From Octopus vulgaris (taxonomy: Eukaryota), in the NCBI GenBank assembly GCA_951406725.2, contig OX597814.1, positions 131,130,001 through 131,194,000 of the forward strand: a stretch of 64,000 nt of DNA, given 5' to 3'. Of this stretch, positions 11,157 to 60,336 are shown in pieces. Below the pieces are notes generated by a model, which was not told the origin of the DNA, made no database searches, and saw nothing but the letters and a program-made list of their open reading frames with translations. The stretch's first letter is position 1; the number at the start of each line of letters is the position of its first letter. Position numbers and translations under genes: made by a program.

Positions 11157-11221
<65 letters not shown>

Positions 11222-11294
11222 AATGAATGTTTTTATATATAATGAACGTGAAATACAGGAAGGGACGAACACGGAACACAGACAAATCATTCGA

Positions 11295-11363
11295 AGCCTT
11301 CAATCTTCAGTCAGACACCGAATCATCATAGCAAATTTCGGCTGTTCAATTCTGATATTTGCT
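11295..11363 (-). ncRNA. Candidate non-circularly permuted hammerhead, unit 1 of the 705-bp array
   Basis: Minus: agcaaa UA tcaga attgaac agcc GAAA tttgct atgatgattcggtg tctga CUGAAGA ttgaa ggct; helix III 7 bp, helix I 5 bp, helix II agcc/ggct after a 5-nt insert. Confidence 0.7.
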
Positions 11364-11998
11364 CCAACTCGGCCAGCCCCAAGAAAAAAAACTAAGCTGT
11401 AAGCATTAGATTTCTTGGTAGAAGACAGGAATGTGAACGCACAAGACGGATGTGAATACAAGAGACGAAAACGAAATTGAAAACAGTAATGAATAGACAA
11501 AATATATAGAACGGTGGTTGTCATACGACTTTAGACCAATGAGACAAAAACACAACAACATAGCTGGCGTAGAAATAATTACCGTTTCGGTAGCGGGGAC
11601 ACATGTTGGTCGAGATACGAAGGCCAACAGAATGGTTTAAGAAGCAGCAGGTCGCAGGAGAGAGAGAAAGAGAGACAGAGAGAGAGGGAATCAAAGAGGG
11701 TGGAAGGCAGGGGACAGAATCAGTGACCAAGGGAGAAGGAGAAAGAAGGGATTAAGGAGGATGGGAGGAAGAGGGGAGGAGGATGGGAGGAAGAATCGGA
11801 GGGCGCCAAAAAGTTTGGTGAAGAAGCAATGGCGGGTAGTAAAAGACAGTGTGTATAGAAGTCGTGCAGGTTTTAAAATTGGACAAACAAACGGGGGGGT
11901 GCACGTAACGCCGCAATAATATAAGAATGAATGTTTTTATATATAATGAACGTGAAATACAGGAAGGGACGAACACGGAACACAGACAAATCATTCGA

Positions 11999-12067
11999 AG
12001 CCTTCAATCTTCAGTCAGACACCGAATCATCATAGCAAATTTCGGCTGTTCAATTCTGATATTTGCT
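11999..12067 (-). ncRNA. Candidate non-circularly permuted hammerhead, unit 2
   Basis: Same sequence as 11295-11363. Confidence 0.7.
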
Positions 12068-12705
12068 CCAACTCGGCCAGCCCCAAGAAAAAAAAACTAA
12101 GCTGTAAGCATTAGATTTCTTGGTAGAAGACAGGAATGTGAACGCACAAGACGGATGTGAATACAAGAGACGAAAACGAAATTGAAAACAGTAATGAATA
12201 GACAAAATATATAGAACGGTGGTTGTCATACGACTTTAGACCAATGAGACAAAAACACAACAACAACATAGCTGGCGTAGAAATAATTACCGTTTCGGTA
12301 GCGGGGACACATGTTGGTCGAGATACGAAGGCCAACAGAATGGTTTAAGAAGCAGCAGGTCGCAGGAGAGAGAGAAAGAGAGACAGAGAGAGAGGGAATC
12401 AAAGAGGGTGGAAGGCAGGGGACAGAATCAGTGACCAAGGGAGAAGGAGAAAGAAGGGATTAAGGAGGATGGGAGGAAGAGGGGAGGAGGATGGGAGGAA
12501 GAATCGGAGGGCGCCAAAAAGTTTGGTGAAGAAGCAATGGCGGGTAGTAAAAGACAGTGTGTATAGAAGTCGTGCAGGTTTTAAAATTGGACAAACAAAC
12601 GGGGGGTGCACGTAACGCCGCAATAATATAAGAATGAATGTTTTTATATATAATGAACGTGAAATACAGGAAGGGACGAACACGGAACACAGACAAATCA
12701 TTCGA

Positions 12706-12774
12706 AGCCTTCAATCTTCAGTCAGACACCGAATCATCATAGCAAATTTCGGCTGTTCAATTCTGATATTTGCT
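12706..12774 (-). ncRNA. Candidate non-circularly permuted hammerhead, unit 3
   Basis: Same sequence as 11295-11363. Confidence 0.7.
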
Positions 12775-13715
12775 CCAACTCGGCCAGCCCCAAGAAAAAA
12801 ACTAAGCTGTAAGCATTAGATTTCTTGGTAGAAGACAGGAATGTGAACGCACAAGACGGATGTGAATACAAGAGACGAAAACGAAATTGAAAACAGTAAT
12901 GAATAGACAAAATATATAGAACGGTGGTTGTCATACGACTTTAGACCAATGAGACAAAAACACAACAACAACATAGCTGGCGTAGAAATAATTACCGTTT
13001 CGGTAGCGGGGACACATGTTGGTCGAGATACGAAGGCCAACAGAATGGTTTAAGAAGCAGCAGGTCGCAGGAGAGAGAGAAAGAGAGACAGAGAGAGAGG
13101 GAATCAAAGAGGGTGGAAGGCAGGGGACAGAATCAGTGACCAAGGGAGAAGGAGAAAGAAGGGATTAAGGAGGATGGGAGGAAGAGGGGAGGAGGATGGG
13201 AGGAAGAATCGGAGGGCGCCAAAAAGTTTGGTGAAGAAGCAATGGCGGGTAGTAAAAGACAGTGTGTATAGAAGTCGTGCAGGTTTTAAAATTGGACAAA
13301 CAAACGGGGGGGTGCACGTAACGCCGCAATAATATAAGAATGAATGTTTTTATATATAATGAACGTGAAATACAGGAAGGGACGAATATTCATTTACTGC
13401 CGACTGAAACTGCGCTTCCGTGGCGAATTTGAAAAATTAACATGTATAACGATGAGCCAAGGTGTTATTCATCTCTTAGTTATATGTTAGTGTTATGGCA
13501 CGGTCACTGATGGGAAATTCACCTAGCAAATTATATTATTTGCTCAAAAAAATTTGAAGCCTAGGTCTGACCGTAATAAAATAACAAGGTAATTTATTTT
13601 TATTCCTTTTGAAGATTGCTCTTAAATGTGGTTTTGGTCATTTTGACTAATTCTTCAAGCGTGTAAAACTACTTGTTGAAGGCAGTTTCTCTTGTGTTTA
13701 AATGTACACTATTTT

Positions 13716-39701: not shown

Positions 39702-39798
39702 ATCCAAACATGAAAACACAATGAGAAAACACAACAACGCGAGGACGTGGAACAAATATAGTATTATTGGACGCTCAGGAAAGAAGGAAAGAAGGAGG

Positions 39799-39833
39799 AT
39801 TTAACATTTCGAGCAGAGCTCTTCGTCAGAAAC
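39799..39833 (-). ncRNA. Minimal type I hammerhead motif in a ~210-bp (TA)n-associated repeat (39697-39910)
   Basis: Minus: gttt CUGACGA a gagc-tct-gctc GAAA ug UU aaat. Confidence 0.7.
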
Positions 39834-39913
39834 ATAGGAAAAGGAAAGATCCAAAGAAGGGAAAACGGAGGGGAAAAAAATCGCCAAAGGTACACACGCG
39901 GTCACATTTTGAA

Positions 39914-40991: not shown

Positions 40992-42588
40992 TATATGTAT
41001 ATATATGTATATATGTGAAATTCACATCTTAGTTTCCCTGTTATTTAAGAGATATTTTATAGTTATTATGTAATTTGCACAGTATAGTTAAGTAGCTTCC
41101 TTTCAGAATATGATTTATTGCGCATATTACGTACAGCTGCGTTTTGTCAAATTGATAAAGAATCATATTTCCTACCGATGAGTCCTCATTTTGTATCTTC
41201 GTATCTAGTCCACTTGAACAGATGTTATCTCAGATCCGTGTACTATACTTTCACACAAATCTCATAATGGCTGATACAGAGTGAAAGAAAGGGCAAGAGA
41301 TGTTGCTAAGATCAATATATAATTTTACTTGTATTTCGTTAAGAAGTATAATTGATATTAAATAGTCCAGTAAACACGGTAGTAGTACAATGGCAAGTCA
41401 ATTCAGTACTTAGAGCATCAGAGGAACTGAATCTGATATTTTGAAAGTGACAGGGCCGCCAAATCGTTTCGGGCTGCGCAGCGACAGTATAGTATGCTGC
41501 CCTCAATGCTGCAGCTGAAGAGGAGGACTTGGGGTGAGGGGTGACGAGGCGAGGAGGCGACGTGGGGAGGGAGCAAGGGGGCGAGTGGGCGAGAGGGTGA
41601 AGGGGCGAATGGGCTAGTGGGTGAGGTGTCGAGGGAGCGAAGGAGCGAGGGGGCTCTGCGGGCGGCACACGCTGTAGCTAAGTCACTGACTGACCTTCGT
41701 TCAAGTCTGATCTGCACGTGTCTCTTAATGCGCAATATCCATGGTTGAATGGTTAAAGCTCTGCGTCTCTCTGGCTTTTACGTTCATATTCAGAGCGTAC
41801 GTAGCACCTTGGATAGATAAAAGTCTTCTTTCATAGACTTTGATAAACGAAAGCTTTGTGAGTGGAATTTTCTAGGTGGAAATTATGGAATCCCATCAGA
41901 AATATCGTTCGTGTTATTGGGAAGCAGTCTTAAGCTTTTACTCCGTCTAACATCATAACCTAGCTCGTGGTGTCTTTAGTACCTCTAAGTAAATCTGCTC
42001 TGTAGAGTGACGCGGATATTACTTTTGAGTAAGCCATCAAAAAACGAGCTAGGAGCCGTGTGGAGGCATTGTCATTGACTCGTGGTTTGCTAATGTTTCT
42101 GTGTAGCGTATGAAGCGATGGAAATGTAACTGTTATTTCTAGCAGAACAATTGATCAAGTAGAGGTTCATGCGAATTCTTTCTTGACTACTCTTTTACTC
42201 GTTTACTCTTTTGCATGTTTCAGTCATTTGTTGTGGCCATGCTGGGGCACGGCTTTTAGTCGAGCAAATCGACCCCATGACTTATTCTTTATAAGCCTAG
42301 TACTCATTCGATCGGTTTCTTTCAGTCGAGTGCGGCCATGCTGAACCACCGCCTTCAAGGGTTTTAGTCAAACAACTCGGCCCCAGGATTTATTCTTTGT
42401 AAGCCTAGTACTTATTTTATCAGTCTGTTCGACCGAACCACTAATTACGGGGACGTAAACAAACCAAATCGGTTGTCAATCGATGGTTTGGGGGTGGGGA
42501 CAAAGACAAAAAGACACGTGACCGCGTGTGTACCGTTGGCGATTTTTTTCCCTCTGTCTTCCCTTCTCTGGATCTTTCCTTCTCCTAT

Positions 42589-42623
42589 GTTTCCGACGAA
42601 GAGCTCCGCTCGAAACGTTAAAC
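42589..42623 (+). ncRNA. Minimal type I hammerhead motif (U4C) in a copy of the same repeat (42510-42720)
   Basis: gttt CCGACGA a gagc-tcc-gctc GAAA cg UU aaac; palindromic aacgtt helix III. Confidence 0.7.
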
Positions 42624-42716
42624 CCTCCTTCTTCCCTTCCTTCCTGAGCGTCCAACAATACTATATTTGTTCCACGTCCTCGCGTTGTTGTGTTTTTTGT
42701 GCTTTCTTGTTTGGAT

Positions 42717-43733: not shown

Positions 43734-44329
43734 GTGGTGGTGGTGGTGGTGGTGGTGGTGGCCGTAGTCGTTGATATGATGGTGATAATGGAGGCGGTGC
43801 TGGTGATGGTAGTTGTTGTTGTGGTGGTAGTGGTGGTGGTGGTGGTGGTAGTGGTGGTTGTGGTGGTGGTGGTGGTGATGGTGGTGGTGGTGGTGGTGGT
43901 GGTGGTAGTGGTGGTAGTGGTGGTGGTGGTGGTGGTGGTGGTGGTGGTGGTGGTGGTGGTAGTGGTGGTGGTGGTGGTGGTGGTGGTGGTGGTGGTGGTG
44001 GTGGTGGTGGTGGTGGTGGTGGTGGTGGTGGTGGCCATGGTTGTTGATATCATGGTGATAATGGAGGTGGTGGTGGTGATGGTAGTTGTTGCTGTGGTGG
44101 TGGTGGTGGTAGTGGTGGTAATGGTGGTAGTGGTGGTAGTGGTGGTGGTGGTGGCCATAGTTGTTGATATGATGGTGATAATGGAGGTGGTAGTGGTGGT
44201 GGTGGTGGTGATGGTAGTTGTTGCTGTAGTGGTGATGGTGCTACTGCTGCCGTGTGTGGCTGTGTTTGTGGTGGTGGTGGTGGTGGTGGTGGTGGCGGTG
44301 GCGGTGGCGGTAGTGGTGGTGGTGGTTGG
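43734..44329. repeat. Degenerate (GTG)n trinucleotide tract with a higher-order repeated interruption
   Basis: gcc..gttgatat..atggtgataatggagg motif recurs three times within (GTG)n. Confidence 0.9.
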
Positions 44330-44692
44330 TTATTTTTCCTCTTTTACGTTTCTAGTCCAAGATTTACATACCAGACAAATAAGCAAGTGTTTCTATATTC
44401 CGACCCCAGTTTTGGGTGTATGGGGGGAGGGAGACGAGCGGGGAGATGAATTTTTGAGGGCCACACACACACACACACGATAGCCATTAGTAAACTAGCA
44501 CGCAAACGCATACATAGATACAGAGACGAAACATATATATATACACATAGATGCACAAATACTCATACAAACTCTCTTTTACATTCTCATTTCTATAGAT
44601 ATAGAAATATATGTAGATATAAAAGTAGCATATATTTGCATGTATATGCATAACTATGCATGTGCATGTGCGGATGTATGTGCGTGCGTGCA

Positions 44693-44755
<63 letters not shown>

Positions 44756-44834
44756 ATGAAGGCATGCAGAAATCAGTACATGAATATATGAGAATACTTT
44801 ACAATTATGTGTAAGTTTCTATGTATGCATGTTC

Positions 44835-44869
<35 letters not shown>

Positions 44870-44954
44870 TATGTATGTGTGTGTGTGTTTCAGTCATTTG
44901 ATTGCGGCCATGCTGGAGCACCGCCTTTATATATATATATATATATATATATAT

Positions 44955-45519
44955 CACACACACACACCTACATACACACATTACACTTGTATACACACAC
45001 ACTTACATTCATACACACACACACCTACACAGCCATACCCTCACTCAGACACACACATCTACCTACACACACACACAAACACACACTGACACACACCCAT
45101 ACATACATACATCTACACACTCACGCCTACACACATACATACACACATACATAAACACACACACATACACATACACACACATACGCACACACGCATATAC
45201 TTATACACATGCACACACACACACATACATACATACACCCATATACATACACACACACATACCTACATACTCCTATACGCACATACATACACACAGACAT
45301 ACACACATACACACTCACACAAACATACACACACACATACTTACACACACACTCACCTGCACGCGCACACACATGCATGACAAACACCCATACACTCACA
45401 TACGCACACACCAACATAAACACGCACACGCACACACACACCTACACTCCCACACACATACACACGCACCTACATACACACACGCACGCATACACACGCA
45501 TACACACATACATTACACA

Positions 45520-45557
<38 letters not shown>

Positions 45558-46260
45558 CATACACACACACACACAAACACCCAGACATACATACATACAC
45601 CTATATACACACGCCCACACACCTACATACACACACATATACACACGCCCACACAGCTACATACACACACATACATACACACACATACACGGACACACCC
45701 ATACATACTTACATACATACACCTATACACACACGCCTACACACCTACACACACACATGCATACACACACACACATGTACGCACATACACACACATATAC
45801 GCACATACATATATACCCACACACATGCACACACACACACATACGCACATGCATGCACGCATGCACACGCGCACACCTACACGCATACACACACACACAC
45901 GCACGTACACATACATACATACACACACGCATACATACACCCATACACATACATGCATCCTACACACACATACATACACACTCACACATACATACACACA
46001 CACACACTCACTCACACACCTGTATGTTCGCGCACACACATGCACATACACACACTTCCCCACACCCACACGTACATACATACACACTCATACACATACA
46101 CACACACACACACACGGACATACATCTATGCACACACATATATACACACATACTCACATACATTCATCGGACACACTGCCACCCAGACATACACACAGAC
46201 ACACTCACACATCCACACACACACATACTTACGCGCACACTCGCAGGCGCGCGCACACAC
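44955..46260. repeat. 1.3-kb degenerate (CA)n/(CATA)n low-complexity tract
   Basis: Direct reading; source of the spurious His/Thr-rich ORFs. Confidence 0.9.
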
Positions 46261-46838
46261 GCGCTTGTGCCGGTTCGCGCACGCATACGCGCCGCATGCA
46301 CCTCGCCCTTGGACCCGACGAGACCTCCCGCCCGTTCCTGGGATCGTCGTTTGTCGTTGGGTTTTCCCACGCCCGTCTCCGCGGTACCACTCTTCCATCT
46401 TCCCCTCAGCTGGAGTCCTTTTCCTTAACCCCCCCTTTTTCGTTACACACACGCGCACACATATACACACATTGCTTAAATATATACATTACTCTTACAC
46501 ACATTCAATCTACTCGCCATTAATACTACCACGACACTGGACACACACACACACTACTACTCAACACACGCTGGCACGCTACATACGCCCCCACCCCTTC
46601 GAGCCTTTCTGGTGACGTCGATGTTCGCCTGGGGCTAAATGCAACAGTAACACCCCCACCACCCTGCCCTGTCCCTAGCCATATTCAGATGGCTTTAGTC
46701 CCTTATGTTATCGAGCAGTTACTGTCTATATCCCTTTTAGAGAATTATTATTGCTTTCGAACAGATTTTCGAAATCAGCAAATGTATTTTGCTTGAAAAT
46801 CTATATAAGAAAATCCTGCAAAGTGAGAATTCGTCGAG

Positions 46839-46912
46839 GAAGCGGAGGCCTACCACACGCCGATGATAGGCAATACACCTTGAAACCATGGTCCGTGTGT
46901 GGTTTCCGCTTC
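46839..46912 (+). ncRNA. Type I hammerhead motif (U4C) with extended helix I
   Basis: gaagcgga..acca/cacacg CCGAUGA t agg-caataca-cct t GAAA ccatgg UC cgtgtg tggt t tccgcttc; predicted cut after 46893. Confidence 0.8.
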
Positions 46913-47198
46913 ATCGGGGAATTACCTCCCTTTGCAGGTTTAGGGCACCGTGACGGTGTCGAGCCTTTCTGGTGACGTCGATGTTCGCCTGGGGCTAAAT
47001 GCAACAGTAACACCCCCACCACCCTGCCCTGTCCCTAGCCATATTCAGATGGCTTTAGTCCCTTATGTTATCGAGCAGTTACTGTCTATATCCCTTTTAG
47101 AGAATTATTATTGCTTTCGAACAGATTTTCGAAATCAGCAAATGTATTTTGCTTGAAAATCTATATAAGAAAATCCTGCAAAGTGAGAATTCGTCGAG

Positions 47199-47272
47199 GA
47201 AGCGGAGGCCTACCACACGCCGATGATAGGCAATACACCTTGAAACCATGGTCCGTGTGTGGTTTCCGCTTC
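47199..47272 (+). ncRNA. Type I hammerhead motif, second unit
   Basis: Identical to 46839-46912; predicted cut after 47253. Confidence 0.8.
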
Positions 47273-48135
47273 ATCGGGGAATTACCTCCCTTTGCAGGTT
47301 TAGGGCACCGTGACGGTGTCGAGCCTTTCTGGTGACGTCGATGTTCGCCTGGGGCTAAATGCAACAGTAACACCCCCACCACCCTGCCCTGTCCCTAGCC
47401 ATATTCAGATGGCTTTAGTCCCTTATGTTATATATATATATATATATATATATATGCATATATATATATGTAGATACCTACATATATATGTATATATACG
47501 TGCATATATAGGTACAGGACGTAAAAGAAACGTGAACAAAATGAGTTTGTTTTTTGTTCTCGCTCCTCATTTTGTTCACGTTTTTTGACGTCATGTATAT
47601 ATATGCATATATGCATGTATATATACATATATATATGTACGTATGTACATATATATTAGTGTATATGCAAATATTTATATATTATTCATGTTATTATATA
47701 TATATATATACATCTGTATGTATATATGTATGAATGCATAACTACATGCATAACTACATGCATATATGTGTATATATATATATGCATGTATGTATGTATG
47801 TATGTATCTATGCATCTATGAGGTATGTATATATATATATGTTTATGTATATGTATTTGTATATATATATGCACATATATATATATATACATATATATAT
47901 ATACATATACATATATATTTATATGCATATATATATATTTGTTTATATATATACATGAATATGTTCAAATTTTTTCAGTTAATGTTTGTTGTTTTTTGTA
48001 TATAATTAAAAGCTTCTATATTAATGCACGCGCGCACACACACACATACACACACACACACACGGACCCACACGCATATGAACACATGTTCGAAGAACAG
48101 GCCTATGTGCGACAGTAACTATGACTCTCTGACTC

Positions 48136-48207
<72 letters not shown>

Positions 48208-48770
48208 TCTGTGTTTGTGTTCAAAGGATGGGCATATAAGCATGAAAGGGAAGTGTAATGGCAGCTAAGGGTTTCAGGTGCATCGGTGCAGATAATCCAA
48301 TCTCTTTCATCAGTCATCAGTGACCTATTCCATCTAGCACCCGCGTCAATCCCCAACATTCTTCTCTCCAGCCTGCCCACCTCAAGAGGGAGCGTGATGA
48401 GATGAAGAGCATGAGGAGGAGCAGGAGGAGGAGGAGGAGAAGGACGACGACAACGACTACGAGGTGGAGGAGGAGGAGGAACGGGAAGTGCAGGGAGGGG
48501 GTAGGAGGCGAAAGTATAATAAGGTGACTTCTTTACATCTCAAGGGGAGCGTGGAAGAGTGTATGAATTATTCATGCAGATACTTACAAATACTTACATG
48601 CATGCATGCACATCAGTACATACATAGCTAAGTACATGTAGCACAACGCGCACATGTATGAATTAGTACTTGCAGACATACATATATGATGGATGTATAT
48701 AGAAACATTCATACATACAAATGCATGTTATATATGTATATATTTCATATATATTTATATATATATATGT

Positions 48771-48797
<27 letters not shown>

Positions 48798-48801
<4 letters not shown>

Positions 48802-49407
48802 ATTAATTAATAAGGGTGAGAGAATTAGATACTAATTTAATAGTATATCTATTCAACACCAAGTGGCCTAGTGCTACGAGAAACCTGGATTATTATAATA
48901 TTTTATAACATATTATAATATTTTTACAAAATAAATATAAGAGAGTGGTCACTATATGGCTCACTCTAGCACCAGTTAATCCAAAAGGTTTCAACCACGA
49001 AAATACATGTTTCCCATGAAAGTCAGTACGATTGTTAGCTCACACGGACAGGGCAAATAAAAAATAACAAAAATACAGATTATTTTGGGACAATTGTTTC
49101 GCTATTAATGAATTAAATGTAATTTTACTTACAAAAAAAAATCCATTTGTAGCTCGTCAGCCAGAACTATCTGGATGAAATCCACTCAATCACACGCCAG
49201 ATTTTACCATAACGATAAATACGCGTGTGGTTCAATTGATTACATCCGACGTTATAATTCAAATGCCCCAACTAACAGCGCGCCAAACTTTCACGGAAAA
49301 CAAATACAGCATTTAGAAATAAATGCAGCATAATTATAATTAATTAATAAGGGTGAGAGAATTAGATACTAATTTAATAGTATATCTATTCAACACCAAG
49401 TGGCCTA
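48798..49407 (-). mobile_element. 537-bp non-coding unit plus ~73-bp terminal direct repeat, embedded in (TA)n; hammerhead-bearing element
   Basis: gggtgagagaattagatac..caagtggccta at 48814 and 49351; (TA)n on both flanks. Confidence 0.8.
49083..49166 (-). ncRNA. Type I hammerhead ribozyme motif with intact core
   Basis: Minus: ttctgg CUGACGA gcta ...45-nt loop... tagc GAAA caattg UC ccaaaa; palindromic helix III, GUC site. Confidence 0.78.
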
Positions 49408-49410
49408 TAT

Positions 49411-49464
<54 letters not shown>

Positions 49465-49483
49465 ATATATAGAGAGAGAAAGC

Positions 49484-49515
<32 letters not shown>

Positions 49516-49765
49516 TAGACATATACACATAGAATTTATGTGTTGGTATGCAAATATATATATATATATTCTTTTATTCTTTTATTTGTTTCGACCCCAG
49601 GACTTATTCTTTGTAAGCCTAGTACTTATTCTCATTTGCCGAACTGCTAAGTTTCGAGGACGTAAACACAACAGCATCGGTTGTCAAGTGATGCTGGTGG
49701 GAGGGGGGACAAACACAGACACATACCCACATAAATAAATAAATATATATATATATATATATATA

Positions 49766-50059
49766 TCACGTGACCACGTGACCGACCAGTCCATCAGATG
49801 TAGTTACACATCGCTGGTCACAATGCGTTCGCATTGTTTCAGCCTTCGAATGACGCCACTCCGCTGGCTAAGCGAGCAGGCCAACAGAAGAAAGAGTGGG
49901 AGAAAGAGTAGTGAAAGAGTACAGCAGGGATCACCACCCCCTGCCGGAGCCTCGTGGAGCTTTTAGCTCAATAAACACTCACAACGCCCGGTCTGGGAAT
50001 CGAAACCGCGATCCTACGACCGCGAGTTCGCTGCCCTAACCACTGGGCCATTGCGCCTC

Positions 50060-50061
<2 letters not shown>
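49766..50061 (-). mobile_element. tRNA-derived SINE (13997 family); duplicate at 55368-55663
   Basis: Minus: ggaggcgcaatggcccagtggttagggcagcgaactcgcggtcgtagg..ggtcacgtggtcacgtgat. Confidence 0.85.
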
Positions 50062-50107
<46 letters not shown>

Positions 50108-50858
50108 CATACATACATACATACATACATACATACATACATACATACATACATACATACGACGGGCTTCTTTCAGTTTCCGCCTATCAAATACACTCAC
50201 AAGTTGTTGGTTGGCCTGTGGCTATAGTAGAAGACACTTGCCCAAGGTGTCACACAGTGGAACTGAACCCGGGACCATGTGGTTGGTATGCCACCTACTT
50301 ACCACACAGGCGCTCCTACGCCTATATATATATCAGTTGAATAAAGTTAAAATGTAGTCTGATTTTCACGTTTTATTTTATGGTATTTTAAAAGACATAT
50401 TTTTCTACGATGTTGAAGTGTTTTAAACATTAAAAACATATTTTGTAATGTCCGTAAAGTTGAATTAGCGCTTTCAAACGTTCGTTGTAATCATCAGATT
50501 TCAAAATGTATTTAACTGACAGTTGACTTCTTGACAACTATAGTAAAATGACTGATTTCATCTTTTTATACGTCTTGGAGGACTCCTACAAGCTGAATTT
50601 TTGGAATACGGTTTTGACCAGTCCGCATGCTCCTTAAACGTCACGGTTTGCCTGGCGTACCGATATTACTGGTATAGATCCCACCTTTATTTTACCAATT
50701 AGCTTGTAGTTTACATGTAATGGTTTTATGAATGAGCAAAAACATGGTTTCGATCGTTTTTATTTCAATTGATGGGAGTCTTCTGTAATTTGTTTATATT
50801 CATGTGTTAAAGATTTTCTTTTAATTCACATCATTAACTGGTTGTTATATTATTGTTG

Positions 50859-51787
50859 TCATTTCCGTTCAGAACAGGTTTGAACATTTTAATGAGCCGT
50901 TTTTCTTTTATCTTTCTTCCAACCTCACCTGTGTCATGTAGTTTGTGGAAAAGAAAAATTAGCAACATTTTCTGACCACATGTTTCTATATGTCCGCTCA
51001 ATGGAATTTGGCGAGCATTAGTGTTCTGGATTTGTTGTCTGTGGATCCGTGAGCGTTCCGATAATGCATTCCCTGTCTCTCTCTATATAGTTCTTCGCAA
51101 TTCGGGCATTTTATGCAGTAGATCAAATTTCTGCTTTTGCAGGTTATATCTGCATTTGTGAAAATCTGTTCCTTTTTTGTTCTAATGGATCTACTTGTAT
51201 GCATGCATTGACACATTCCCCATCTGTTATCATTACACTTGGATACTGTGAATGTTTTATACTGTTTGTTCATGTTAAATTTTGCCTTTGTTAATAGTTT
51301 CTTTGGGTTATGTGTTTACTTTTACAAGATAAGTACTTGATTACTCACCATGCTTTTTTAATTTTTCACTTTGTTTCATGATTGGCAAATTTGCTTTGAT
51401 GATGTTAAAAATGTTTTGATAATGCGGATTGTGTGTTATGAGAAATAGTATTGTGTTCCGTTGATGGATTTGTTTTTTTCGTGTTGCCCTAAGTTGTTCT
51501 ATAGGTATCTCTTTTGCTCGTTGTATGCTATTTTCTATAAGTAGGAGAGGGTAATTTTGCTTCAGCAGTAATCCTTTGAGTTCTATACGTCGCATGTTCC
51601 TAGTATTTGGATCATCTACTTACTATAGTACAAATTTTCCTGACTAGACAGTACGGGATGTTGCGTTTTGTGGGTGTTGGGTGGCATGATTTGAAATTTA
51701 GGTACTGATGTGCATCTGTGCTTTTGTAATAAATACCAGTTGTGAGTGTAGTGTTGTTTTAATTACCATTATGTCAAGAAATGGTGA
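50859..51787 (-). mobile_element. Penelope-like element: RT thumb, Cys-rich linker and GIY-YIG endonuclease remnant
   Basis: PFLDIMV..IYYKSTDAHQYLNFKSCHPTPTKRNIPY..LLKQNYP..ITCKSRNLIYCIKCPNCEELY..KEKRLIKMFKPVLN, with frameshifts. Confidence 0.9.
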
Positions 51788-51789
51788 AT

Positions 51790-52018
51790 GTGTGTTGCTT
51801 ATCTCTCTGTTTTCTATAAGTATTGGGATACTTGGAACAAAACCTATATCATAAAAATTGAAGAGAACTACGGCAAGACTTTTAGAAGACCTGTAGAGGA
51901 CATATGGAAAAGATACCTCGATGATTGTTTCCTAATTTGGACCAAATCCCTAGAAAACCGGGAAGAAATCAGTACCCTCCTCAACAATCTACACCCTAGT
52001 CTCAAATTCACAAGAGAA
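51790..52018 (+). mobile_element. Inverted PLE RT fragment containing the catalytic YLDD
   Basis: WKRYLDDCFLIWTKSLENREEISTLLNNLHPSLKFTRE. Confidence 0.88.
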
Positions 52019-52053
52019 AGGATGGATGGAGGGATGGACGGACAGACAGACAA

Positions 52054-52199
<146 letters not shown>

Positions 52200-53424
52200 T
52201 GATTGATTGATAGAAGATTACTGGTGTCGTGCCAAAACGTGTTACCAATATTGCAGACAAGGTTATCTTTGTGTGCAAAGGTAAGTAGCCACTTAAAAAC
52301 CATTTGTAAACGAGGACGAAGCGATTCCAAATAAGTCCACTGCTACAACAATTTCTTTGAAATTAGATTGGTAAAAAATTGTTTAACCTGTACAAGAAGC
52401 ATCAAGGAAAGCTATTCGTCCCGAGTCATATGTCACCAGCTGTTTGATCTTTGTACAAGCAATTAATTTTGGTGGACATTCTAATCCAGATGTTGAATGT
52501 CATATCTAAGTTGCCTCAAGGATCCGTCGACTGAGAACTGTAGCTGCTGTTTTTACTGGAGCAGGCAGTTCGCAATGTTTAAGATCCTCGGTAGCCATCG
52601 ACCAAAGTTCAGTGCTTGGTTGAACATTACAGAGGTTAACTCCAAAGATTATTTAATTTTTCCCCCCGCTCCAGTGACTATGGCAAAGTTACTGTGAATC
52701 TGATGGGGAACTGGTATAGAAAATAAAAGCGAAGTATTTCGTCCTTTATTTATTTATTTATTTTCTCTTTGTCTTTTTCTTGGATGTGAGACATTGTGAT
52801 GTCTTCCAATGAACTGTTTCGATCAGCCTCATCTTTCAAGAGGCAGCTTCTCTTGCAAACTTCATGGCATGTTACGCAGACACATACAGCTTGTGTTTTT
52901 AAATTCTCGAATGACACTAGACAAACAAATGTTGAGCAAGTAGTTGTCTGAGATAAAATCACTCAAAGAAACGGGATGACACGACTGGGCGCAGCCGTTT
53001 CGGCACTAGAAATTCGGCACAGCTGACTGGACATTGAACCTGTTATGGCGAAAGTACTTTTTCTTTCTTATTTACTGGACTGCATACTGTTCCTTGCAGT
53101 AGAATCAAGCGAATTAATGTAATTACGTGACTCACGTTCTTCAGATTCCTACACACACACACACACATGTATATATATATATATTTAGTTGTAAATTGTA
53201 AAACATAACAGCCACCATTACTACATGAACCTAAAGATTGCGTATTTTAAATGCATGAAAGTACTAGGTCAATCAGAAAGGACATTTAATATTCTATCAT
53301 TTCATTATATTATATTATATTATATTATGCTATGTTATCATAAGATTGCAAATAAAGCGTGAAAATCAGATAAAGTTGGAATTTCTTTGAGTAATATATT
53401 CTTCTAAACACAGCCATACACACC

Positions 53425-53805
53425 TGTTCCACGTCTCTGTCCTTCTGTTGTAACAAAATGTCTTTTCCGTTTTCGTTCTGTTGATTTTTTCGTCTTCCTG
53501 TGATGTCCTGTACGTATATATATTTATATATGCATGTATATATACATGTAGATGTCGGTACGTACATATACGTTTGTATGTATGCATATATTTTATTTAT
53601 TACACTATTGTCTGACAGCGCTTCGCGTCGGGTTCGTTTGAATTTTCGATTTTTCGAATTCTCACTTCGTTCCGTCTCTTCCTCCTTGTCCGTTTTTACA
53701 GTTTACTACAATGATGCGAAATTCTCTCCCTTTGCTTTACCTTCCCTTCTCTCTCTCTCTTGCTCTCTCTACCTCACCCTTCTCTCTAGCCTGTGTCTTC
53801 CTCTA

Positions 53806-53869
<64 letters not shown>

Positions 53870-54545
53870 ACTCCTCCTCACTTTCGTCACTGCTAAACCT
53901 TTCCGCCTGTTGCATTCAGGCCCTAAGGTCATGTTTCCTCGCGCTCGCCAGTTACCTATCTCGTCCCAGCCAGAACAAAGGCCTTCGTTCGTCTTTTTCG
54001 TTTATTCTCTTGTTTATTTTTGATTTCTCGTATTGCAATTTAATTCTCGTTATGTATTTTCTTGTACATGTATCTTTATTTTGTATTATTTATTTTTTTC
54101 TTGTATGTATTTTTTGTGCAGTTCTTTGTTACGTCCCTTTTTGTGTTACATTCTTTCTCGCTCGTTTACCCCTCTACGAGTTTATTTTATTTTAATTCTC
54201 TCGTAGGAAGGCCTAGCTTGGCTATACGTGTTCTGTCTCTGCCTTCGAAACACGTGTCTGCTAGCGACAGCTGATGAAGGGGAGTTTTCCTTGTGCAGCA
54301 TGTCCTGTACTTCGTTTTTCTGCTGCACATAATTGTTTTTCCTGTTTTCGTTTTCGTTTCGTCGTCTTGTTCCACGTCTCTGTCCTTCTGCTGTAACAAA
54401 ATGTCTTTTCCGTTTTCGTTCTGTTGATTTTTTCGTCTTCCTGTGATGTCCTGTACGTATATATATTTATATATGCATGTATATATACATGTAGATGTCG
54501 GTACGTACATATATGTTTGTATGTATGCATATATTTTATTTATGA

Positions 54546-54549
<4 letters not shown>
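53425..54549 (+). mobile_element. 943-bp unit plus ~180-bp terminal direct repeat ending in (TA)n; carries a permuted hammerhead
   Basis: tgttccacgtctctgtccttctg..tacacta at 53425-~53607 and 54368-54549. Confidence 0.8.
54224..54282 (+). ncRNA. Candidate non-circularly permuted hammerhead, intact core
   Basis: atacgtg UU ctgtc tct gccttc GAAA cacgtgt ctgctagc gacag CUGAUGA a gggg; helix III 8 bp, helix I 5 bp, helix II cttc/gggg. Confidence 0.75.
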
Positions 54550-54584
<35 letters not shown>

Positions 54585-54719
54585 TATATACATACATATA
54601 TATAATATATATATATAAGAATTTTTTGCGTAATAATACAAAAAACCAAGGCTGTTTCTAGGATATTTATTAATTATATCCCTTCATCGGAGACGGTGTG
54701 AGAGGATGATTAAGTCTAT

Positions 54720-54819: not shown

Positions 54820-60336
<5,517 letters not shown>

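Follow-up and report, generated by a model that had tools for sequence, protein, structure and literature searches.

How does a short non-coding RNA with its own ribozyme come to lie in animal DNA as a tandem array, which enzyme copied it, and from what form of the RNA? The question is raised by a locus of Octopus vulgaris in a window of 64,000 nucleotides (nt), the whole stretch that was analysed (contig OX597814.1, positions 131,130,001 to 131,194,000, forward strand; coordinates below are those of the window), where a 360-nt unit with a predicted type I hammerhead ribozyme is repeated in tandem. Analysis of its relatives in the 2.8-Gb assembly leads us to conclude, with a probability of roughly 0.7, that it is a non-LTR (long terminal repeat) retrozyme copied by the reverse transcriptase (RT) of a Penelope-like element (PLE), which initiated synthesis from both DNA ends on a single RNA, probably circular. 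The element shows every testable feature of a non-autonomous PLE of the non-LTR retrozyme kind except the canonical hammerhead core.

Identity at a period of 360 is exact from 46599 to 47431 (833 nt, 2.31 copies), in agreement with the 2.3 exact copies of an earlier sequence-only reading, and the right end of the array adjoins (AT)n, as that reading had also noted. The predicted monomer has a GC content of 46.7%, so that unit size and composition lie within the retrozyme range (150–450 nt, GC <50%). The longest stop-free frame in the tandem or triple unit is 98 codons, and the unit has no protein-coding open reading frame (ORF), hence none with the RT and GIY-YIG domains of an autonomous PLE. 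No tRNA was found in 44000–49000, and thus no tRNA-derived head; primer-binding sites (PBS) were not searched for, nor were polypurine tracts (PPT). Positions in the unit are given as phases, phase 1 being 46894, the first nucleotide after the predicted cut.

Insertion ends and template of the repeat family

The window family is young, dispersed and recently active. The unit has 252 matches in 40 scored of 595 candidates, and the full-length ones are 98–100% identical, showing recent spread, as the proposal of a recent insertion implied. An exact 26-nt core pattern has 804 matches on both strands genome-wide, and a control pattern none; contig C1 holds 82 of the 804 in 18 loci, from which we extrapolate to about 180–220 loci. 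The retrozyme-type element that had been proposed is supported. An older sister family (3025 candidates, ~90% identity among copies, 70 exact cores) has the same layout and the same two 3' ends, with a canonical core and short arms. Contigs of runs X1 and X15 match 46602–46694 at 90–95% over short stretches and then diverge, suggesting further sister families.

We mapped 56 loci, namely the 40 scored for unit matches and 16 chosen by position from core matches. In their 95 arms, 39 3' ends lie at phase 178 (site A) and 36 at phase 222 (site B), the class windows being 165–179 and 213–223, respectively; 76 of the 95 adjoin (AT)n. The terminal unit of one haplotype shows that the last AT of the array comes from the target, which places site A at or before phase 176. 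The permuted ends expected from the sequence alone are thus found on the 5' side, where they are scattered along the unit (chi-square P = 0.044), but not on the 3' side, where two fixed positions are used. Every one of the 39 two-armed loci is head-to-head: 35 combine A with B, none A with A, one B with B (through a 34-nt piece), and three have one odd end. In the position-picked subset, 11 of 12 two-armed loci are A+B. Single arms (n = 17) end at A in 13 cases, at B in three and elsewhere in one. Target duplications of 12–15 nt, microhomology included, were detected at four of the nine loci tested that have at least one non-AT flank, the other five being without, and two AT-flanked controls gave AT matches only.

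Sites A and B flank one predicted stem-loop, and the same two 3' ends occur in an autonomous PLE of this genome (L094). According to the accessible portions of the cited papers, to which all our statements on published systems refer, the PLE tail is the stretch between two internal reverse-transcription start sites in vitro (PMC11167929), and PLEs usually carry a 30–40-nt tail at one end and an inverted 5'-truncated copy (10.1101/2021.04.23.441226; PMC3846280). The insertion anatomy of the family is PLE anatomy. The sequence-only reading had described the array without its PLE tail, the head-to-head two-armed insertions of its relatives or the PLE fragment, in place of unique DNA, at its 5' junction.

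Foreign inserts of ~155 and ~265 nt, perhaps captured by template switching, lie inside arrays or between arms at two loci (L045:1834-1987 and L162:1859-2124). Two long two-armed arrays with similar left flanks and different haplotypes are found 15 kb apart (L032 and L033, G000:C2:57269-57295 kb). Sister-family hammerheads lying kilobases apart (L179, L180) were considered as a pseudo-LTR (pLTR)–ORF–pLTR arrangement, which was ruled out as they are separate insertions.

The arms also inform on the template. They measure 34–5304 nt (median 788), 59 of 95 exceed 582 nt, and 86 run across the predicted cut site. Crossings of that site are exact in 243 of 248 cases, comparable to control windows, indicating a template continuous over the cut, either a ligated circle or an uncut multimer. 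At three polymorphic sites the two arms agree in 34/34, 27/27 and 28/29 informative loci (chance per locus 0.53–0.71), and 144 of 148 site-by-locus cells are homogeneous. Arm lengths showed no correlation (rho 0.23, P = 0.18; 35 pairs). Four rare variants were searched genome-wide. That of L154 has eight matches, all within this locus, six in one arm and two in the other; the rare allele of the window has three, two in the window array and a single one elsewhere; the remaining two variants have six and eight, and no other locus carries two in tandem. For a new mutation to occupy an entire array, a single-unit step is required, which favours a circle, and the rare-variant and arm-homogeneity data together support the 360-nt single-unit template put forward earlier. 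Two candidate private alleles, 277del and 291A, proved common to several loci and were dropped as evidence. Self-closing contigs of 390 nt in three other runs fit a circle and a tandem equally well.

The preferred mechanism would start with transcription of tandem arrays, whose hammerheads would cut, probably slowly and best as dimers, to give monomers and partly cut multimers; as in other animals, monomers may then be ligated into 360-nt circles. A PLE endonuclease/reverse transcriptase would cut AT-rich DNA and start cDNA synthesis at two fixed internal positions of the RNA, separated by 44 nt, a step to which the ends of the copies attest. Priming would very probably be divided between the sites, A serving one DNA end and B the other, with one RNA or one haplotype shared by both. 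Each end would presumably copy round the template, for up to ~15 units, and stop at a near-random phase, the two arms then being joined head-to-head. The window copy is the one-armed, site A form.

We tentatively propose a more specific version, in which each two-armed insertion would be a single event by a dimeric PLE enzyme, both ends of the DNA break being primed on one 360-nt circle at sites that face each other across one stem-loop, with both active sites rolling round. The change of U to C at position 4 of the core (U4C) might then represent a down-tuned ribozyme that spares circles and permits long arrays, and at the window locus the enzyme would have switched to the RNA of an autonomous PLE. 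If this is true, the family documents, in nature, both how the tails and inverted repeats of PLEs come about and how a circular RNA of an animal is retrotransposed by a rolling-circle route.

The predicted ribozyme and the competing templates

The type I hammerhead proposed for each unit is present at the positions given, with a second copy at +360. Its location and its CCGAUGA motif stand, and the U4C deviation had gone unflagged. U4C is found in the 804 exact cores, and no sequence with C3 and another base at position 4 occurs in the same context. The predicted long helix I arm was retained, as 46810–46942 folds at -62.3 kcal/mol (z = -6.8, 300 dinucleotide shuffles), but its acca/tggt register was not, covariation preferring a 6-bp helix I with a 3x1 internal loop. 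The circular monomer folds at -116.6 kcal/mol (z = -5.8, 100 shuffles). The proposed pairing of cctgcaaag with ctttgcagg is perfect in the window but reflects a rare allele (three matches), 41 of 55 loci having G and 13 of 55 T. The Rfam check suggested by the sequence-only reading was negative, with no hammerhead match at E<=5 on 44000–50000 (6 kb) or at E<=10 on 46800–46960 (161 nt). Rfam microRNA matches were microsatellite-driven and below gathering scores, and were not taken.

Covariation was analysed in 18 aligned, hand-picked arms, six of the window family and 12 of the sister family. Paired cells amount to 94.2% (slid controls, 26–55%), and eight of 28 pairs are altered on both sides. 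Helices I–III and the helix III palindrome covary between the two families. The palindrome is kept in three different spellings across relatives, in line with the dimer-capable helix III proposed before, and would allow an 8-bp duplex between two hammerheads (-11.2 kcal/mol). The changes seen affect N7, which is free to vary, and sites compatible with a wobble pair; a contig of organism B shows this too. Arms stop exactly at phase 2 in five insertions (among 15 genome-wide matches); the mapped set includes 3/95 such arms, with 0.53 expected for phases 1–2 (P = 0.017). They provide modest support for the predicted cut, because three of the five come from the discovery set and one (L170) is compatible with self-complementarity of helix I.

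Other variants were observed among related hammerheads. An older subfamily (L171, L178) has a UUGAYGA core (C3U, with the canonical U4), and a different helix III palindrome is found in L171, L174 and L176. C at position 4 is also present in several unrelated PLE-type hammerheads of this genome (L095:5298-5347; L061; L104; L132), suggesting that U4C may be common in this lineage.

A number of results weigh against a cut and circularized RNA copied by a PLE enzyme. The canonical core C3 U4 G5 A6 N7 G8 A9 ... G12 A13 A14 A15.1 ... U16.1 H17 is broken at position 4; U4C lowers hammerhead activity considerably in vitro (PMC3088659) and probably lowers cleavage by the window hammerhead. A viroid variant that carries this core nevertheless remains infectious (PMC3088659). 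The active fold of the monomer lies 7.4 kcal/mol above the minimum. Two of five covariation measures failed against 500 shuffles (the other three beat all 500), and the signal is mostly one split between the two families. Eight of nine frog retrozyme dimers were uncleaved (bioRxiv 10.64898/2026.07.22.740005), and a lizard PLE inserts uncut RNA, its ribozyme being dispensable in vitro (PMC11167929). No PLE with DNA similarity to the unit, and no homologous pLTR, was found in three full elements and 41 endonuclease loci, the latter taken from the 150 candidates scored out of 6136; the three autonomous PLE families compared (P0001 family, P0002 family and L095) gave no significant DNA similarity to the unit. 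The L049 variant is confined to the 3'-most unit of both arms, four loci (L020, L033, L055, L153) are mixed arrays, and some arms (537 and 581 nt long) terminate where the (second) cut is predicted; these three observations imply that linear dimers or multimers serve as templates too. Finally, the assembly represents one haplotype, so that donor arrays may be missing from it.

It might be argued that two-site priming by a PLE used a linear read-through multimer as its sole template, the U4C hammerhead being weak or vestigial and a circle unneeded, which we regard as unlikely. In vitro, the lizard PLE mostly uses uncut RNA (PMC11167929), and this explanation would accommodate the in-register L049 variant, the mixed arrays, the arms ending at the cut site after one crossing and the U4C core; the clean cut-site junctions are compatible with it as well. 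Copying from such a template would, however, leave a new mutation confined to a single unit, whereas seven or more haplotypes are each fixed along whole arrays, and all eight units of L154 have its variant although the assembly contains no donor for it. Arrays would also become shorter, never longer, over generations, and constraint on the core and helices persists, changes occurring at N7 and at positions that permit a wobble.

The template could instead be a linear or nicked monomer whose ends are held by helix I, the enzyme jumping from 5' end to 3' end at each round. This is improbable to a further degree, as template jumps in other retroelements usually leave gained or lost bases, whereas the 243 exact crossings out of 248 are no more variable than control windows. 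The 5' ends exactly at phase 2 (3/95 arms, 5/15 genome-wide matches) could be read as run-offs, and template changes are known in the family (L153, L033, L130); the discovery set and L170 together account for four of the five run-offs, as detailed above. The arrays are very improbably products of DNA-level events after insertion (unequal crossing-over, minisatellite) or of the assembly process, a route proposed in a 2026 preprint (bioRxiv 10.64898/2026.07.22.740005) that would suit the periodic variants in L055 and L033 and the two similar arrays 15 kb apart on C2, but not the fixed A/B ends, the long arrays that very young insertions have in each of their opposed arms, the short arms in the older sister family, the locus-specific alleles that extend through both arms or the 360-nt cycle present in contigs of three other runs.

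The neighbouring PLE fragment and other features

The segment that precedes the array is 97–98% identical to the 3' untranslated region (UTR) of a young autonomous PLE (966 candidates). A full copy of the latter (L139) has pLTRs and a 759-amino-acid RT/GIY-YIG-type frame, P0001, with a weak RVT_1 match; we take this PLE to be Neptune-like from its cysteine motif. The composite of fragment and array sits between two (AT)n tracts (Table 1). We give slightly better than even odds to insertion of the array behind an older PLE fragment, with deletion of its end, and odds just short of even to a switch of RNA by the enzyme within one event, giving a chimera. Among 65 family loci we found no clear second retrozyme/PLE chimera, with one 61-nt, 84% match in L168. 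No contig spans the junction in 4 of 24 runs, an uninformative result (46480–46598 is uncovered in three and partly covered in one).

The P0001 family has a single 3' end only, and the P0002 family a ~38-nt tail. An abundant young autonomous PLE (L087-L093; L093:2706-5051) has many intact 781-amino-acid frames and two 3' ends separated by ~38 nt; near L093:5975-6015 it carries a hammerhead-like motif whose core has U3-A8. A 46-nt match between L095 and the unit was rejected, being due to a neighbouring sister-family copy.

Table 1. Coordinates of the repeat, its predicted ribozyme parts and its flanks in the window
Feature	Position	Strand	Remarks
Retrozyme-family insertion, single-armed, 2.31 identical 360-nt units	46599..47431	+	5' end = phase 66, 3' end = site A
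Predicted monomer, phase 1-360	46894..47253	+	Between the two predicted cleavage sites; cleavage putative
Type I hammerhead, copy 1	46854..46899	+	Predicted cut after 46893 (C17)
Type I hammerhead, copy 2	47214..47259	+	Copy 1 +360; predicted cut after 47253
Copy 1 helix I (6 bp)	46854-46859/46894-46899	+	
Copy 1 core CCGAUGA	46860-46866	+	U4C variant
Copy 1 helix II (3 bp)	46868-46870/46878-46880	+	U.U at base
Copy 1 GAAA	46882-46885	+	
Helix III palindrome ACCATGGT	46885..46892	+	2-bp helix III with tetraloop
Rod-like helix I extension	46815..46938	+	Compensatory changes in sister family
44-nt tail, 3'-end site A (phase ~176-178) to site B (phase ~222)	47072..47115, also 46712-46755	+	Predicted stem-loop
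(AT)n target tract at site A 3' junction	47429..47498	.	Last AT of the array may be target-derived
PLE 3'-UTR fragment, CA-rich	44955..46598	+	Young autonomous PLE, without last ~510 nt; 2-nt microhomology to array
(AT)n tract, left end of PLE-fragment-plus-array composite	44928..44954	.	

Elsewhere in the window, a second young tandem repeat (11211–13386, minus strand; period ~706 nt, 3.1 copies, 99% identical) ends at (AT)n ~95 nt past a CUGAAGA...GAA motif, helix I not being evident; it may be a further tandem of a non-autonomous PLE. At two places there are short 3' ends of PLE type that carry a minimal hammerhead-like motif: 42585–42635 (plus strand), where a CCGACGA core is followed by (AT)n, and ~39790–39837 (minus strand). 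The segments 49227–54719 and 54820–60336 form a 5.5-kb direct duplication, 98.3% identical, which may be a tandem duplication or an assembly effect. A 17-nt stretch at 48114–48130 presumably resembles the 28S ribosomal DNA site of R2 elements and I-PpoI.

Comparison with known systems

Metazoan non-LTR retrozymes (PMC7229834; 350–390 nt in mussel, Rtz_353 in axolotl) likewise have a non-coding tandem unit of 150–450 nt with GC <50%, a type I hammerhead in each unit and a self-paired fold. In axolotl HHR_Amex2, helix III is likewise 2 bp long with a tetraloop and helix II has a basal U.U; its monomer was cleaved to 22%, its dimer more efficiently (PMC7229834). The U4C core distinguishes the window family from them, and circular RNA was demonstrated there and is predicted for the octopus family. 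The accessible part of that report describes no fixed pair of 3' ends, no head-to-head arms and no targeting of (AT)n.

With endonuclease-bearing PLEs (Poseidon PAc, PMC11167929; Neptune/Naiad, 10.1101/2021.04.23.441226; rotifer Penelope, PMC3846280), the family has in common two internal start sites that define a one-end tail, an inverted arm truncated at its 5' end, insertion into AT-rich or (TA)n DNA, target duplications of around 10 bp and a hammerhead upstream of the start sites. It differs from these elements by the lack of an ORF, a tail of 44 nt rather than 30–40, up to ~15 units per arm and a canonical-size hammerhead, theirs being minimal. PAc showed no strand bias between sites in vitro (PMC11167929), whereas the copies of the window family pair A with B.

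In Xenopus, PLE-derived retrozymes (bioRxiv 10.64898/2026.07.22.740005) have similarly been proposed to be non-autonomous PLE derivatives that occur as monomers, dimers and multimers. Their link to PLEs is pLTR homology and co-occurrence; that of the window family is insertion anatomy, no homologous pLTR having been found. Plant LTR retrozymes and hammerhead viroids are also small self-paired RNAs processed by a hammerhead, with U4C in an infectious viroid variant. The plant elements differ in their type III ribozyme, LTR, PBS, PPT and 4-bp duplications, and, in contrast with viroids, the window family gives no sign of RNA-to-RNA replication.

Circular templates have already been proposed for PLEs (PMC4209133) and retrozymes (PMC7229834), and for animal retrozymes the idea is that circles are mobilized by the reverse transcriptase of another element, PLEs being the candidates, with enzyme and mechanism left open in these papers (PMC7229834; bioRxiv 10.64898/2026.07.22.740005). 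The 2026 preprint ties retrozymes to PLE pLTRs by homology and, in its accessible part, leaves the mechanism open (bioRxiv 10.64898/2026.07.22.740005). Our literature search, beyond whose reach most subscription papers lay, found no report of the window family or of A/B pairing in retrozymes. The type of element is thus known, and the new value lies in copies that record PLE two-site priming and single-unit copying: both PLE-specific insertion anatomy and single-unit copying are visible in ~200 very young loci. For the head-to-head repeats of PLEs, the family offers an explanation in which both ends are primed on sense RNA, an alternative to an antisense template with self-priming. As the 360-nt template and intact PLE frames occur in one genome, the questions of enzyme and mechanism are directly testable.
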